Below, piece by piece: positions 2,515 to 39,254 of a DNA stretch of 64,000 nucleotides. Source of the stretch: a virus. Both the position numbers and the translations under genes were made by a program. How positions within the stretch are numbered: position 1 is the stretch's first letter; each line of letters begins with the position of its first letter. Where the stretch lies: IMG/VR virus record IMGVR_UViG_3300047550_002723, positions 1 through 64,000 of that record; one strand, written 5' to 3'. The notes beneath the pieces are model-generated. The model searched no databases and had not been told where the DNA came from. It worked only from the letters and a program-made list of their open reading frames with translations.

Positions 2515-2886
2515 ATGAAATTTGATGAGTTGAATGAAGATAATTATTTACTATTCGCAATAAAATTTTATGATAATCCTCAATCAGTTACGTTTGAGGA
2601 TTTTGAATCTGATTTGAAAAGAATTAAGTATATAAAAAGATTATTAAAAAGATATAAAAATACTGGTGAGTTGAAAATTCATCTGATATTAAATCATTTA
2701 ACAGTTTTATTTAATGTTTTTAATGATGCCACTGTTCCATTATTATTTTATAATTTGGATGAAGATTTGTGGTCTTATATAAAAAGTTTTTTAATATTTT
2801 TGAATAGAATACCAGAATATCCAAAAACTTCAATAAATGATATTCCTGAAGATAAAGAATGTCTAAAGCAATTGCAATCAATTTAA
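2515..2886 (+). CDS. Conserved T4-like cyanophage hypothetical protein
   Basis: 123-aa ORF MKFDELNEDNYLLFAIKFYDNPQ..., usual position upstream of primase. Confidence 0.7.
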   Translation: MKFDELNEDNYLLFAIKFYDNPQSVTFEDFESDLKRIKYIKRLLKRYKNTGELKIHLILNHLTVLFNVFNDATVPLLFYNLDEDLWSYIKSFLIFLNRIPEYPKTSINDIPEDKECLKQLQSI

Positions 2887-3101
2887 TGGAAAGCAAAATA
2901 AATAGAATTATTGATATCATTCATTCTCTTAAGGAGGAAGGTATGGTAACTGGTACTCCTACTAATAATATTTCGAGTGGAAATATTGCAAAGTATGATC
3001 CAGTGATGGGATTTACCAGAAGAAAAGTTCCAACAATTATAGGGAAAGGTAAGTTTCCTGGTTCTAGAACACGTTGGAAAAACACTAATATTCACAATTA
3101 G
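2886..3101 (+). CDS. Hypothetical protein
   Basis: TAATG coupling to previous gene; MESKINRIIDIIHSLKEE... Confidence 0.6.
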   Translation: MESKINRIIDIIHSLKEEGMVTGTPTNNISSGNIAKYDPVMGFTRRKVPTIIGKGKFPGSRTRWKNTNIHN

Positions 3102-3105
3102 AACA

Positions 3106-3528
3106 ATGTTCCAACAATCATCTACCGAAACAAAGATAGCATTACTCGAAGAGCGCATTAATGTTTATGAGCAGATGATGGAACGCATTGATACAGCAAT
3201 TCAAAAGATTGGAGAGACAAGTCAAAATATCAGTCAAATGCTTGCTATTCATAATGAAAAGATTGAACAATGTAATCGTACAGATAGTATAATTGTAACA
3301 ATGATTGAAGATATAAAAAAATCTTCAAAAGAACAACACGATCAAATAAGTGAAAAGTTAGGTGAAAGAATAGAAAAAGTAGAAGAAAAAGTAGAAAGTA
3401 TTTCAAAATTTAGATGGCAAGTATTAGGTGGTTTAGCAGTAGTTGCTATCTTTATTAAATTTGCCCCACCAGCATTTAATCTCTTGACACCCCGCACTTC
3501 TCCTGTTACAGTAGAAAGACTGAAATAA
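3106..3528 (+). CDS. Coiled-coil protein with C-terminal transmembrane helix
   Basis: Heptad-rich body, RWQVLGGLAVVAIFIKF tail. Confidence 0.65.
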   Translation: MFQQSSTETKIALLEERINVYEQMMERIDTAIQKIGETSQNISQMLAIHNEKIEQCNRTDSIIVTMIEDIKKSSKEQHDQISEKLGERIEKVEEKVESISKFRWQVLGGLAVVAIFIKFAPPAFNLLTPRTSPVTVERLK

Positions 3529-17037: not shown

Positions 17038-17220
17038 ATGACTGTATCACAAGAACTGCTGAATGCTGTTGAAGCGTGGAAAGTAGAAGACGAAAAATTT
17101 ACTGCTGGAAATAGTGCAGCAGGCACTCGTGCTCGTAAAGCACTTCAAGAGATTGCTAAACTGGTCAAAACTCGTAGAACTGAGATCACTGAAGAAAAAA
17201 ACGCCCGTAAGGCGGCTTGA
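17038..17220 (+). CDS. Histone H1-like Hc1-family protein
   Basis: GNSAAGTRARKALQEI signature. Confidence 0.7.
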   Translation: MTVSQELLNAVEAWKVEDEKFTAGNSAAGTRARKALQEIAKLVKTRRTEITEEKNARKAA

Positions 17221-17280
17221 CGAATTAAGGTCTAAGACCTTATAATACTCTCATGGGCAAAGGGGGTCCAAACCTCTTGT

Positions 17281-17332
17281 AAGACCTGCCCCTCCCATGC
17301 CTCTCAACGATGCACAAACAGGGAGGTCTCTT
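17281..17332 (-). ncRNA. abiF-like RNA hairpin (minus strand)
   Basis: Reverse complement CCUCCC-UGUUUG-UGC-AUCGUUGAGAG-GCA-U-GGGAGG resembles the abiF motif as I recall it; not searched. Confidence 0.45.
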
Positions 17333-17609
17333 GTCTCAGTAGCTCAGTCGGAATAGAGCATCTGCCTTAAACATAAATGGAGCGTCATAAAGGAAACTTT
17401 ATGAATGTAACTTCTCAAATTCGGGGAACCCTTTAAAATGGCAATCCCGAGCCAAGCATCGTTAGATGAAGGTGTAGAGACTTTACGGGAAGTGCCTAAG
17501 TCCTTTGGGATATGGTAAAGAGAAAGTCCAGACCACAAACAGAAATGGCGGAGAAATCCGTAGTGGTAAGCTAAGCAGTTGGTCGGGGGTTCGAGTCCCT
17601 CCTGAGACG
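17333..17609 (+). tRNA. trnR: tRNA-Arg(UCU) split by group I intron (exons 17333-17368 and 17571-17609)
   Basis: Joined exons give GTCTCAG/CTGAGAC acceptor, GCTC/GAGC D-stem, CTGC-CTTCTAA-GCAG anticodon arm, GGGGG-TTCGAGT-CCCTC T-arm. Confidence 0.9.
17369..17570 (+). mobile_element. Group I intron, 202 nt, in tRNA anticodon
   Basis: Follows U, ends in G; P AAATTCGGGGAA, Q AATCCCGAGC, R GTAGAGACTTTA, S AAGAGAAAGTCC; GAAA-capped P2 and P9; CCTAAG/TATGG receptor in P8. Confidence 0.9.
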
Positions 17610-17658
17610 TTTTTTGAACCTTTTAATGCATAAATAATAGTAACTAAAAGGTTCCATT

Positions 17659-18129
17659 ATGGTTAAATGTTTATTTTGTGGAGAGAAGACTTCTAATCCA
17701 AAATTTTGCGGTAGAAGTTGTGCTGCTTCTTATAATAATAAAAAGGTTCCTAAAAGAAAACCAGAACATAAATGTATTGATTGTGGGAAACCCATAACAG
17801 CAAATCGCGCTCGTTGTATGGAACACTATTTGGTATGGACTAAGAATAGAGAAGTAAAAGATATGACTCTTAAAGAAGCAATATATGAAAAACATCACAA
17901 ATCATCAGCATTCGCCTTAGTGAGAACAAGAGCAAGAGCAGTTGCTAAAAAACTTGGTTTTAACGAATGTGTTAAATGTGGATATGATAAACACATAGAA
18001 ATAGCACATATTAAACCAATATCTTCTTTTAGTGATGAGGTTATGATAAGTGTAATTAATGCCCGTGAAAATATAATGCCTTTGTGCCCAAATTGCCATT
18101 GGGAATATGACCATAACCTTTGGACTTGA
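17659..18129 (+). CDS. Free-standing HNH endonuclease with N-terminal Zn fingers
   Basis: CVKCG..IEIAHIKP..NARENIMPLCPNCHWEYD; several CxxC. Confidence 0.88.
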   Translation: MVKCLFCGEKTSNPKFCGRSCAASYNNKKVPKRKPEHKCIDCGKPITANRARCMEHYLVWTKNREVKDMTLKEAIYEKHHKSSAFALVRTRARAVAKKLGFNECVKCGYDKHIEIAHIKPISSFSDEVMISVINARENIMPLCPNCHWEYDHNLWT

Positions 18130-18160
18130 CATAATCTCAGAACTGGTGTAATATATAAAA

Positions 18161-18218
18161 GTGATAGAGGGTAAGTCCCTGTTATATCCTTATGAGATAT
18201 ATCACACTTACTCCATCA
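18161..18218 (+). ncRNA. Hairpin ncRNA, abiF-like variant
   Basis: GTAAGT/ACTTAC stem enclosing CCCTGT-TATATC-CTTATGAG-ATATA; directly downstream of TTGACA..TAATAT promoter. Confidence 0.4.
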
Positions 18219-18221
18219 AAA

Positions 18222-18313
18222 GTAGGAAGTGCAACCCCTCTCGCTGGTCTAGTATTCTGTGTCTGGATGAAGGGAAAGGTGATTCTGTCCGCACATAGAA
18301 ATCCCTCCTACCA
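18222..18313 (+). ncRNA. Unknown structured RNA ending in CCA
   Basis: GTAGGA/TCCTAC closing stem, GTGC/GCAC, TTCTGTGT/ACATAGAA pairings; 4 nt before tRNA-Asn. Confidence 0.4.
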
Positions 18314-19362: not shown

Positions 19363-19516
19363 TTTGTGGTATTGTGTTGATATGAATCAATGGCGTTGGA
19401 CACTTACGGATAGTTCAAGACCAATTCGTAAACAAGAATCAGGTCAAAGAGAAAATCTTCGGGATGCTATGAATGATGTAGCAAATACTGTAGAATATAT
19501 GATGACCAAGATTTAA
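19352..19516 (+). CDS. Small hypothetical protein
   Basis: MKINLWYCVDMNQWRWTLTD...DAMNDVANTVEY. Confidence 0.6.
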   Translation: MKINLWYCVDMNQWRWTLTDSSRPIRKQESGQRENLRDAMNDVANTVEYMMTKI

Positions 19517-19522
19517 TTTCTT

Positions 19523-19595
19523 GGGCGATTAACTCAGCGGTTAGAGTGTCTGCTTTACACGCAGAAAGTCCGCAGTTCGAATCTGCGATTGCCCA
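19523..19595 (+). tRNA. trnV: tRNA-Val(UAC)
   Basis: GGGCGAT/ATTGCCC, TCTGC-TTTACAC-GCAGA, CGCAG-TTCGAAT-CTGCG. Confidence 0.93.
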
Positions 19596-19622
19596 TTATA
19601 AATAATTTGAAAAAGAAGTGTA

Positions 19623-20057
19623 ATGGAATCTCTATATAAACTTCTGAGTGATACGCAAGCATCACTCTTTTTGCTGTTTCAAAAAACTTGGGTCTATCAC
19701 TGGCACATTGTTGGTGAAGATTTTAAACAAATTCATGATTTATTTGGTGAGCAGTATCTTGCCATTCAAGAAGAGATCGATAGACTCTCTGAACATATGA
19801 GATTCTTAGGTATCAAACCCATTAGTTCTTTATCGAGAGTATTGGAAGTTTCTGGAGTTTCAGAAGCAAAAACTAACATTTCTTCAATAGAAATGATTCG
19901 TGATCTTTTGGAAGATCATAAAAAAGTAATTACTATGCTTGACTCTGCTGCCATTGAAGCAGAAGAACAAAAATCAAGAGGCACGATTAATCTTCTTGAT
20001 GATTTAAACGAAGCACATGGAAAATTTGTTTGGATGTTAAGATCATTTACTGAATAA
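19623..20057 (+). CDS. dps: Dps / mini-ferritin
   Basis: HWHIVG.DF.QIH.LF..QY...EEIDRLSE ferroxidase pattern; TATAAATA at 19597-19604. Confidence 0.88.
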   Translation: MESLYKLLSDTQASLFLLFQKTWVYHWHIVGEDFKQIHDLFGEQYLAIQEEIDRLSEHMRFLGIKPISSLSRVLEVSGVSEAKTNISSIEMIRDLLEDHKKVITMLDSAAIEAEEQKSRGTINLLDDLNEAHGKFVWMLRSFTE

Positions 20058-20074
20058 AACTATCTTATAATACA

Positions 20075-20332
20075 ATGGAAAATTTAAGAATCAGATGTCG
20101 TTCCTGTGGTAAGGAAATCGAAGGGCATCATAGTAAAACTGTATCATGCGGTTGTCCTAATATGGCAACTATTCGTGGTGATAAGATTTCGGCAGTTGAC
20201 TTATCTAATGTTGTTATGCTAAACTCTTATCATAATAAAACGAAGACTGGTGTTCTTACTAATGAAGATCTTGCATTTCAAGAATCAAGGCGTCAAAGAA
20301 AAGTAAGAAGACTAGACTTTGAAGTCCGTTGA
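20075..20332 (+). CDS. Small Zn-binding hypothetical protein
   Basis: CRSC..CGCPN. Confidence 0.65.
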   Translation: MENLRIRCRSCGKEIEGHHSKTVSCGCPNMATIRGDKISAVDLSNVVMLNSYHNKTKTGVLTNEDLAFQESRRQRKVRRLDFEVR

Positions 20333-20343
20333 GGACTTTTATT

Positions 20344-20426
20344 GGAGAGAGTCCGGTTGGTCGAGGACACCGCCTTGAAAGCGGCTGGGTTTAAAAGCTT
20401 CGCAGGTTCGATTCCTGTTCTCTCCG
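20344..20426 (+). tRNA. trnS: tRNA-Ser(UGA)
   Basis: GGAGAGA/TCTCTCC, CCGC-CTTGAAA-GCGG, long variable arm, G discriminator. Confidence 0.85.
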
Positions 20427-20539
20427 TTTAAGAATTGCAACAAAATTTAAGATTGTCTTAAACACTTTCTTGAAATCAACACATAGTTGACATAGTAGAA
20501 TTACTCACTAGCATAACTAGTAGTATTCACCTCAAACTT

Positions 20540-20689
20540 ATGGATCAACACACCTACGATAATTGGGTGAAGATCAAGGAAACTTTCGAAGCTTCTGGAA
20601 ATCTAGATAATATGTTTTATAAGAGAGCAGTTGAAATTGTAAAAACCCGAAGAGATCCCCTAGCAAAGTTTCTTGGAGATGAAAAATGA
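20540..20689 (+). CDS. Small hypothetical protein
   Basis: MDQHTYDNWVKIKETFEASGNLDNMFYKRA... Confidence 0.6.
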   Translation: MDQHTYDNWVKIKETFEASGNLDNMFYKRAVEIVKTRRDPLAKFLGDEK

Positions 20690-36515: not shown

Positions 36516-36632
36516 CCACTCCCACTAACCGAGACCTATGGGGAGTATAAATTACGTCTCTCATACCCACACTGGAGGGTGGTGTGGGATATAATGTATT
36601 CGTTCAGTTCCCCCTGAGCACTACTTACCCTT
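36516..36632 (+). ncRNA. PhotoRC-II-like psbA leader RNA
   Basis: ACTCCC/GGGAGT stem with GAGAC/GTCTC pseudoknot, CCCACAC/GTGTGGG hairpin with GAGGGT loop, in psbA 5' UTR. Confidence 0.65.
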
Positions 36633-36640
36633 TAACGAAA

Positions 36641-38645
<2,005 letters not shown>

Positions 38646-38651
38646 TGAAAT

Positions 38652-38679
38652 TAGAGACCCTTTACGGGTCTCTTTTTTT
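38652..38679 (+). terminator. psbA terminator
   Basis: AGAGACCC-tttac-GGGTCTCT + T-run. Confidence 0.85.
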
Positions 38680-38732
38680 GTACTATAATGGTGTTTAAGA
38701 TTTTATAAATAGTTAAAAGATTAAACACCATA

Positions 38733-39254
38733 ATGAGAACCACGAAGATTTGTAGAACCTGCACACAAGAACTTCCTATCTCCGATTTTAGAGAAGGTCG
38801 TAGAAGGTGTATGAGATGTGAAGAAAAAACTTATGCTGAAAACTGGGCAAGTAAAACTCACATTATCTGTAATAAGTGTGGTGTAGAAAAACTCATTTCA
38901 GAGTATTATAAAGGGCACAAGAGATGTAAAGAGTGCTATAGTAAAGATTATAAGGATAAAAAACCTTCTTATGATGATAAGAAGGATTATATGCTAAAGT
39001 ATACTTATGGTGAAGATTTTGGTTTGGAGCAATATAAAAACATTCTTCAAGAACAAAATGAAGTGTGTGCTATTTGCCTAAATCCAAATACTAATGGTAG
39101 AAAGGATAGTAACAATCTCTATGTTGACCACAACCATAATACTGGAAAGGTTCGTGGATTACTTTGTAGTAACTGTAATAGAATGCTTGGTATGGTTGGA
39201 GATAATATCAGCACACTAACTAATGCAGTTAAATACCTACAAAAGCATCAATAA
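38733..39254 (+). CDS. Free-standing Endonuclease VII-type homing endonuclease (F-CphI-like position)
   Basis: CAIC..LYVDHNHNTGKVRGLLCSNCNRMLG; two N-terminal Zn-finger repeats. Confidence 0.88.
   Translation: MRTTKICRTCTQELPISDFREGRRRCMRCEEKTYAENWASKTHIICNKCGVEKLISEYYKGHKRCKECYSKDYKDKKPSYDDKKDYMLKYTYGEDFGLEQYKNILQEQNEVCAICLNPNTNGRKDSNNLYVDHNHNTGKVRGLLCSNCNRMLGMVGDNISTLTNAVKYLQKHQ

Follow-up and report, generated by a model that had tools for sequence, protein, structure and literature searches.

A 202-nt group I intron splits a cyanophage tRNA-Arg(UCU) gene beside a separable, putative HNH homing-endonuclease gene

Introduction

The tRNA-Arg(UCU) gene of an uncultured freshwater T4-like cyanophage is split within its anticodon loop by a small group I intron, and an intact HNH gene follows just downstream of the tRNA. 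As judged from the loci compared here, intron and HNH gene usually but not always occur together and are separable. Probably, the locus holds two separate selfish elements within one early tRNA unit, namely a self-excising intron and a tRNA-flank-homing HNH enzyme, which would cut near the uninterrupted anticodon.

In a 2014 review all phage group I introns then known were located in protein genes, despite the many tRNA genes of phages (PMC3984707). Later, Devoto et al. 2019 called introns in phage tRNAs unreported, and those that they described were not of group I (PMC6784885). A description of group I introns in phage tRNAs was found nowhere in the searchable literature. For bacteria, the initial annotation of the locus had listed four tRNA settings of such introns; this list is out of date, as a 2020 preprint by Williams gives 21 bacterial tRNA intron settings and includes Arg.3Ug in its seed alignment (bioRxiv 10.1101/2020.01.27.920355). 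The IC3 family, the Arg.3Ug setting, collaborative homing (S-PM2) and the position of SegB beside tRNA-Arg are known already, and the phage home of the intron is new in the searchable literature.

Results

The window, i.e. the whole stretch of DNA that was analysed, comprises the first 64 kb of an IMG/VR record of 74,981 bases (about 32% complete) and has a GC content of 36.8%. It is marked as cyanophage DNA by its PhotoRC-II and wcaG RNAs, by genes for an Hc1 histone-like protein and a cyanophage OMP, and by a psbA gene that two group I introns interrupt; the DNA runs that cover most of it are labelled as freshwater or drinking-water metagenomes. ARAGORN calls six tRNAs in the raw window and none at 17333. 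The features of the locus are collected in Table 1.

Table 1 Features of the split tRNA-Arg(UCU) locus. Intron numbering (i) equals the window position minus 17368.
Feature	Position	Strand	Evidence
Putative sigma-70-like promoter of the tRNA-Arg transcription unit, TTGACG-18-TATAAT	17217..17246	+	11/12 consensus positions; same arrangement in S-SRM01
abiF-motif RNA (RF03085), 5' leader, ends 5 nt before the tRNA	17291..17327	+	53.8 bits (gathering score 37)
tRNA-Arg(UCU) exon 1, positions 1-34, CUU end	17333..17368	+	ARAGORN, spliced and unspliced sequence
ORF-less IC3-type group I intron, 202 nt, between U34 and C35	17369..17570	+	Rfam RF00028, pair mapping, covariation
Intron P1	exon CUU/i12-14		
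Intron P2 (GAAA loop)	i17-24/29-36		
Intron P3	i43-48/119-124		
Intron P4	i53-58/77-82		
Intron P5	i62-63/72-73		
Intron P6	i84-85/103-104		
Intron P6a	i89-92/97-100		
Intron P7 (pseudoknot)	i109,111-114/157-161		
Intron P8 (CCUAAG..UAUGG tetraloop receptor)	i127-135/140-147		
Intron P9	i165-168/195-198		
Intron P9a (GAAA loop)	i180-184/189-193		
Intron omega-G	i202		
tRNA-Arg(UCU) exon 2, positions 35-73, CCA not encoded	17571..17609	+	ARAGORN; exact coordinates
Hairpin, arms 17616-17625 and 17645-17654	17616..17654	+	-11.5 kcal/mol, z -2.1
Free-standing HNH gene (putative homing endonuclease), 156 aa, intact	17659..18129	+	Pfam, PHROG HNH families, 74 IMG/VR relatives
Putative sigma-70-like promoter, TTGACA-17-TAATAT, overlaps the HNH stop codon	18126..18154	+	promoter motif match

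The initial annotation had held that the tRNA cloverleaf closes only if 17369-17570 is removed, and these coordinates proved exact. ARAGORN calls tRNA-Arg(tct) after removal of the 202 nt and, with its intron option, reports i(38,202) on the unspliced DNA. The joined exons (17333-17368 and 17571-17609) form a canonical tRNA-Arg, in which the acceptor stem has 7 bp, the anticodon loop reads CUUCUAA and the T loop reads TTCGAGT. Other splice readings, e.g. CCUUAAA with a UUA anticodon, were rejected, as U33 and the 5-bp anticodon stem are lost. Exon 1 is 92-100% identical across 18 IMG/VR loci and exon 2 is 100% identical to the 3' half of the tRNA-Arg of S-SZBM1, whose intron-less gene is 97.6% identical to both exons. 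In the cultured Synechococcus phage S-SRM01 the order is Hc1, promoter, abiF-motif RNA, tRNA-Arg(UCU), leader, tRNA-Asn, Thr and Gly, with an uninterrupted tRNA-Arg and no HNH gene. Further empty sites with the same synteny were found in IMG/VR (L183, L243, L186), and the intron-less tRNA of L241 is identical to that of the window over all 75 nt. No record of the cultured-phage collection contains an intron-split tRNA-Arg of this kind.

The assignment of the insert to the group I introns withstood the covariance-model check: RF00028 matches 17358-17552 with 64.6 bits (gathering score 50, E 4e-14). The insertion after U34, the terminal G, the P/Q/R/S core sequences, the length and the lack of an ORF, all claimed before, were likewise verified. 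The 5' splice site directly follows CUU, whose U(-1) lies opposite the G of the guide GAG, the intron ends in G17570 (omega-G), and the cores comprise P4 UCGGGG/UCCCGA and P7 GAGACU/AGUCC; the ORFs that overlap the intron all extend beyond it. Homologous introns of the Anabaena and Azoarcus types guided a hand drawing of the helices P1 to P9a, in which P7 is a pseudoknot; the window intron forms all 51 drawn pairs. In an alignment of 22 distinct phage introns (14 from tRNA-Arg(UCU) and 8 from tRNA-Leu(UAA), 72-100% identity) 96.9% of the cells were paired, compared to 34-45% with the partners slid, and none of 500 shuffles was as good on any measure. Compensatory changes were observed in 27 of the 51 pairs, including three of the five pairs of the P7 pseudoknot and five of the six of P3, and the exon CUU, the guide GAG, the AAA of J3/4, P4 and the final G are invariant in all 22. 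Pairing and covariation of this extent indicate that the fold is under selection, which argues for an active intron. Given the intron-less orthologues in S-SRM01 and S-SZBM1, the degree of pairing and the shuffle control, chance can be excluded as the source of the split-tRNA reading.

The intron shares its insertion site after CUU (post-U34) and its GAG guide with the IC3 introns of cyanobacterial tRNA-Leu(UAA) (Leu.3Ug), Azoarcus tRNA-Ile and Arg.3Ug. Furthermore, the core strings AAAUUCGGGGAA and GGCAAUCCCGAGCCAAG, the GAAA loops of P2 and P9, the 11-nt receptor in P8 and an ORF-less length of about 200 nt are common to all of them; the core strings are nearly identical to those of Rba190.Arg.3Ug of a bacterial assembly (Williams 2020). 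Unlike these relatives, which reside in bacterial or plastid chromosomes, the window intron lies in a phage tRNA array. It is 75-82% identical to phage tRNA-Leu(UAA) introns. By homology it belongs to the IC3 subgroup of tRNA introns, and from its fold it should be self-splicing.

That the split gene is a dead tRNA whose intron has lost splicing we regard as extremely improbable. Contigs of four metatranscriptome runs contained no spliced junction of this phage; the RNA-library contigs cover the intron interior, the unspliced exon 1-intron junction and part of the HNH gene, and may be DNA carry-over. Moreover, P1 has only three exon pairs and a large loop. A 3-bp P1 is also found in Anabaena-type tRNA introns. 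Against loss of splicing, the core helices are all kept by compensatory change, the U•G pair and omega-G are invariant, and the exons are canonical and conserved. Joins of CTGCCTT to CTAAGCAG in the RNA libraries have flanks that differ from those of the window and were therefore assigned to intron-less tRNA-Arg genes from other organisms, and one apparent skip of the intron turned out to be an intron-less relative similar to S-SRM01.

No other promoter-like site was found between the putative promoter at 17217-17246 and the tRNA-Arg, so that the abiF-motif RNA and the tRNA-Arg would form one early unit. In 10 of 12 related loci the RF03085 motif (43-54 bits) lies 5-7 nt upstream of tRNA-Arg(UCU), and its position is the same with or without intron and HNH gene. 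Apart from the window, the motif is carried by L004 (2512-2548), L025, L045, L064, L172, L183, L186, L243, L257 and L031. The abiF-motif RNA is otherwise linked to abortive-infection abiF genes; the phage-borne copy may serve as a decoy against defence systems or as a signal for processing. At the other end, the second putative promoter forms the 3' edge of the HNH insertion and would feed the next leader and tRNA-Asn/Thr. In the empty sites (S-SRM01, L064, L183, L243) the 3' end of the tRNA-Arg is joined directly to the TATATAAA..GATAGAGGGTAAG leader. The stretch after the post-HNH promoter and before the next tRNA is itself a conserved leader, GATAGAGGGTAAGTC...ACTTACTCCATCA at 18160-18230, also kept in L004 (2650-2710), L064, L183, L243, L186 and others; it matched no Rfam family.

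Across 45 long ORFs of the window, AGA accounts for 52% of the Arg codons and is the commonest of them, in agreement with the initial annotation, which had further suggested that splicing gates the supply of the AGA-reading tRNA; for this second part we found no support beyond codon usage. The intron might be kept mainly for the benefit of the phage, by timing or gating the AGA-tRNA supply or by evading a host anticodon-directed defence, and both the codon usage and the high conservation of the intron sequence would agree with this. That no second tRNA-Arg was found on the 75-kb record would agree as well, but this record is only about 32% complete. Close relatives of the same synteny (S-SRM01, L183, L243) do without the intron, there is no sign of regulated splicing in the sequence, and a selfish-element explanation suffices. 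A benefit of this kind is therefore very improbable as the main reason for the presence of the intron.

The free-standing HNH gene described just after the tRNA was confirmed as well. Its ORF starts 49 nt past the discriminator base, and two Pfam models match residues 104-156 above their cut-offs (PF13391 with 29.9 bits, cut-off 21; PF01844 with 22.3 bits, cut-off 21.4). The motif residues C104xxC107, H111/H115, N138, C143xxC146, H147 and H151 are intact over 104-151. A sequence search of solved structures with the HNH protein gave no useful match. In syntenic genomes the gene is optional: S-SRM01, L064, L183 and L243 lack it, and over 25 loci have it at a constant distance of 44-51 nt from the tRNA. 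By this optional-gene criterion it would be a free-standing homing endonuclease, for which DNA cutting is predicted.

The hairpin in front of the HNH gene carries the T4-late-promoter-like CATAAATA in its loop (17629-17636) and the AAGG ribosome-binding site of the gene in its 3' arm. Most relatives have TATAAATA instead; among about 20 distinct spacers this motif is nearly invariant, and the arms of the 10-bp hairpin vary with compensation. The same design is known from I-TevI, I-TevII, I-TevIII and segB of T4 and from mobE of Aeh1, where the ribosome-binding site is hidden in read-through transcripts and exposed in late transcripts that start inside the hairpin (PMC2988022). By analogy, the HNH hairpin would act as a late switch. 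A T4-type late-promoter motif lies at most about 30 nt before all three homing-endonuclease ORFs of the window, the other two being preceded by TATAAATA at 37405-37412 (LAGLIDADG ORF) and 38704-38711 (Endo VII ORF).

These two ORFs belong to the psbA region (36584-39254), where two group I introns divide psbA into three pieces. The first intron (about 37146-37888; 47.9 bits, below the cut-off) contains the LAGLIDADG ORF (37438-37836), and the second (38220-38447; 79.7 bits) is ORF-less and is followed by the Endo VII or F-CphI-type ORF (38733-39254). This second intron and the Endo VII ORF are a candidate for a second collaborative-homing pair of the S-PM2 type in the window.

The initial annotation had proposed that intron and HNH gene form a collaborative-homing unit, against which an independent distribution of the two would speak. 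A scan of IMG/VR yielded 74 loci with HNH relatives, 29 of them with copies of at least 83% identity. Among these close copies, 24 lie 44-49 nt downstream of an intron-split tRNA-Arg(UCU). Two (L248, L253; HNH 85% identical) follow a tRNA-Arg(UCU) with the same anticodon stem that is split by a 45-nt insert, two (L257, L262) follow an intron-less tRNA-Arg(UCU) with a different anticodon stem, and for one the upstream sequence is absent from the locus. The 45-nt insert is placed after C35, one nucleotide past the intron site and about 120 nt upstream of the HNH start (locus position 2501); it forms a T-arm-like hairpin and is not of group I. The cognate anticodon arms that adjoin close HNH copies are thus interrupted in 26 of 26 cases. 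The HNH gene was found beside none of 120 uninterrupted cognate arms (CTGCCTTCTAAGCAG), 104 of which come with at least 700 nt of downstream sequence; this contrast is a weak test, because only about 12 of the 120 loci share the window synteny and most stem from other genomic contexts. In all of these locus counts related contigs are not independent samples. The distribution fits an enzyme that would cut the uninterrupted anticodon region, and with it collaborative homing at this locus is plausible. A tentative, more specific possibility is that the HNH enzyme recognises the DNA of the uninterrupted tRNA-Arg(UCU) anticodon stem-loop, and that the 202-nt ribozyme and the 45-nt tRNA-like mini-insert were independently recruited as immunity elements.

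Seen from the intron, this HNH gene is present in 16 of about 26 intron-bearing loci listed, and about 10 loci have the intron but not this HNH gene (among them L064, L031, L042, L024 and its kin, L007 and L091). L064 has a 99.6% identical intron, an empty HNH site and a downstream junction of the S-SRM01 type. In L042 the intron-split tRNA-Arg(UCU) is followed at 53 nt by the start of a different 119-aa ORF (2824-3183), whose C-terminus resembles that of HNH proteins (PF01844 17.3 bits, below the cut-off). This ORF, too, is preceded by a hairpin with TATAAATA; it appears to be a second nuclease lineage at the same site. Conversely, about 10 loci have the HNH gene without the intron (L257, L262, L281-L287, L289), so that all four combinations of intron and HNH gene exist. 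The HNH genes of a clade with 57-66% identity always follow tRNA-Arg(UCU) genes that lack the intron and differ again in their stems, a derived branch has relocated to tRNA-Ile(GAU) or to other sites, and distant relatives occur in the tRNA arrays of Felix O1, Erwinia phage Ep030 and Synechococcus phage MA01. Divergence is uncoupled, too: in L049, L043 and L108 the identity to the window is 100% for exons and intron, 84% for the spacer, 83% for the HNH gene and 81% for the upstream lysozyme gene. With flanks of such low identity, the intron segment must be younger than its surroundings; it was exchanged without the HNH allele, and intron and HNH gene are therefore not an obligate unit. As to the proposed collaborative-homing unit, a strong linkage and a compatible distribution were found, and so was the occurrence of each partner apart from the other.

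This separability bears on a further explanation, according to which the linkage reflects proximity only. The HNH enzyme would then be a marker-exclusion nuclease similar to SegB whose cut lies 3' of the tRNA in its flank, in the T-arm or in intergenic DNA, and the intron would confer no immunity, would be dragged along or not by co-conversion and would spread mainly by recombination between identical exons. The four combinations, the identical intron beside an HNH gene of about 83% identity, the intron-less tRNA-Arg genes next to the oldest HNH clade, the intron-less arrays of Felix O1, Ep030 and MA01 and the cutting of the tRNA intergenic region by T4 SegB all agree with this. Nevertheless, within the clade of at least 83% identity no HNH-adjoining cognate arm is uninterrupted; the inserts are of two unrelated types, placed 1 nt from each other, a pattern that would hardly be expected if the anticodon region did not matter to the HNH enzyme. 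We consider linkage by proximity only unlikely.

To assess the spread of the intron, an 18-mer from the P5/P4/P6 region was used, which is found in at least 118 IMG/VR loci; at about half of the matches listed ARAGORN calls a split tRNA. Among the matches listed there are at least 26 tRNA-Arg(tct) genes with introns of 197-219 nt, many tRNA-Leu(taa) genes and others with less certain labels. In fact, putative IC3 ribozyme introns are common across the tRNA genes of phages, in those for Arg(UCU), Leu(UAA) and others. The window tRNA and intron recur at 93-100% identity in 18 loci. Loci with a lysozyme gene of only 65-86% identity share exons and intron at 97-100% identity, which, on the evidence of these identities, shows mobility of the intron. 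The intron tree is poorly resolved, and switches between tRNA-Leu(UAA) and tRNA-Arg(UCU) are not countable from it.

Related introns of 190-250 nt that end in GTGGTAAG were also observed in other phage tRNA genes, tRNA-Leu(taa) included (L013, L017, L018, L020, L021, L024, L035, L046, L056, L062, L077, L089, L092, L093, L103, L116, L117, L119 and others). The ARAGORN labels among them comprise Tyr(ata), Ser(aga), Phe, Lys, Thr, Gln, His and Met, and the odd ones probably reflect mis-set intron boundaries. Some contigs (L024, L053) carry two split tRNAs 600 nt apart. A related group I intron of the Pelagibacter phage HTVC120P (L318, record 19433-20607; 75% identity over 125 nt) is not in a tRNA; it sits between two CDS, each annotated as 'capsid protein', and probably an intron-split capsid gene has been annotated as two genes.

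For comparison, 185,579 species genomes of GTDB were scanned with a gapped pattern (CCTT, GGAGC guide and P4 core). Of 53 matches, 52 were chance matches in coding DNA and one was true, namely a tRNA-Arg(tct) with a 213-nt intron on an 8.4-kb contig of a Chitinophagaceae MAG (L346); this contig may be a phage fragment that was binned with the MAG. The tally of at least 26 IMG/VR loci versus one true GTDB match is no measure of the frequency of bacterial Arg.3Ug introns, because the pattern is narrow.

Discussion

The closest known arrangement is that of S-PM2, where an ORF-less psbA intron and the free-standing F-CphI undergo collaborative homing (Zeng, Bonocora, Shub 2009; PMC6083498). As in S-PM2, an ORF-less group I intron interrupts a conserved gene of a T4-like cyanophage, a nuclease gene lies just downstream and the nuclease is never seen beside its uninterrupted cognate target; a psbA intron with an Endo VII gene is shared as well. 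Unlike in S-PM2, the target is a tRNA gene, the nuclease is of the HNH and not the Endo VII type, and intron and HNH gene are separable. Furthermore, F-CphI was shown to cleave the intron-less allele and to be blocked by the intron, and for the window HNH both are predictions.

T4 offers a second parallel with the GIY-YIG enzyme SegB, whose free-standing gene lies between tRNA-Arg and tRNA-Ile and which cuts intergenic DNA of the tRNA region (PMC2988022, PMC2790892). In both cases a free-standing homing endonuclease gene adjoins tRNA-Arg in a T4-type phage and has a late promoter, putative in the window, inside a hairpin that sequesters the ribosome-binding site, and co-conversion of neighbouring markers, as in SegB and in mobE/I-TevIII trans homing, would be a further likeness (PMC2988022, PMC2790892). 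The nuclease families differ, and the T4 tRNA genes have no intron. In Felix O1-like phages HNH relatives of 32-51% identity likewise lie between tRNA genes, but the neighbouring tRNAs are without intron and a preference for tRNA-Arg(UCU) is not seen. HNH genes in tRNA arrays are also known from T5.

For the reading of two separate selfish elements we infer the following course of events. Transcription from the promoter at 17217 would yield an RNA in which the intron folds into P1-P9 and the anticodon stem holds the exons together. Two guanosine-dependent transesterifications would then excise the intron and leave a normal AGA-reading tRNA. The HNH cassette begins 7 nt past the tRNA, and its family would home to the 3' flanks of tRNA genes, mainly of tRNA-Arg(UCU). 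Because the cassette brings its own late-promoter-in-hairpin switch, we propose that the enzyme would be made only late in infection. In a mixed infection it would most likely cut the tRNA-Arg(UCU) of phages without the HNH gene, at or near the uninterrupted anticodon region. Donor-templated repair would then transfer the HNH gene and usually the intron as well, given that the latter lies within 90-290 nt. The intron, in turn, would spare the donor from self-cutting.

With respect to phage genomes in general, tRNA repertoires are under-counted, because standard tRNA finders miss intron-split genes. The ribozyme is small and has two GAAA loops and a canonical receptor, and an easy assay is expected. 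If the anticodon stem-loop is indeed what the HNH enzyme recognises, collaborative homing would take place at a tRNA gene, and pressure from a homing endonuclease would drive different introns into the anticodon loops of phages. The locus provides a natural series of states, in which intron and HNH gene are both present, one of them is present or both are missing, and in which the site can also hold an insert of another kind. This series is suited to asking by what route ORF-less introns gain mobility and whether a homing endonuclease exerts selection for the interruption of its target.
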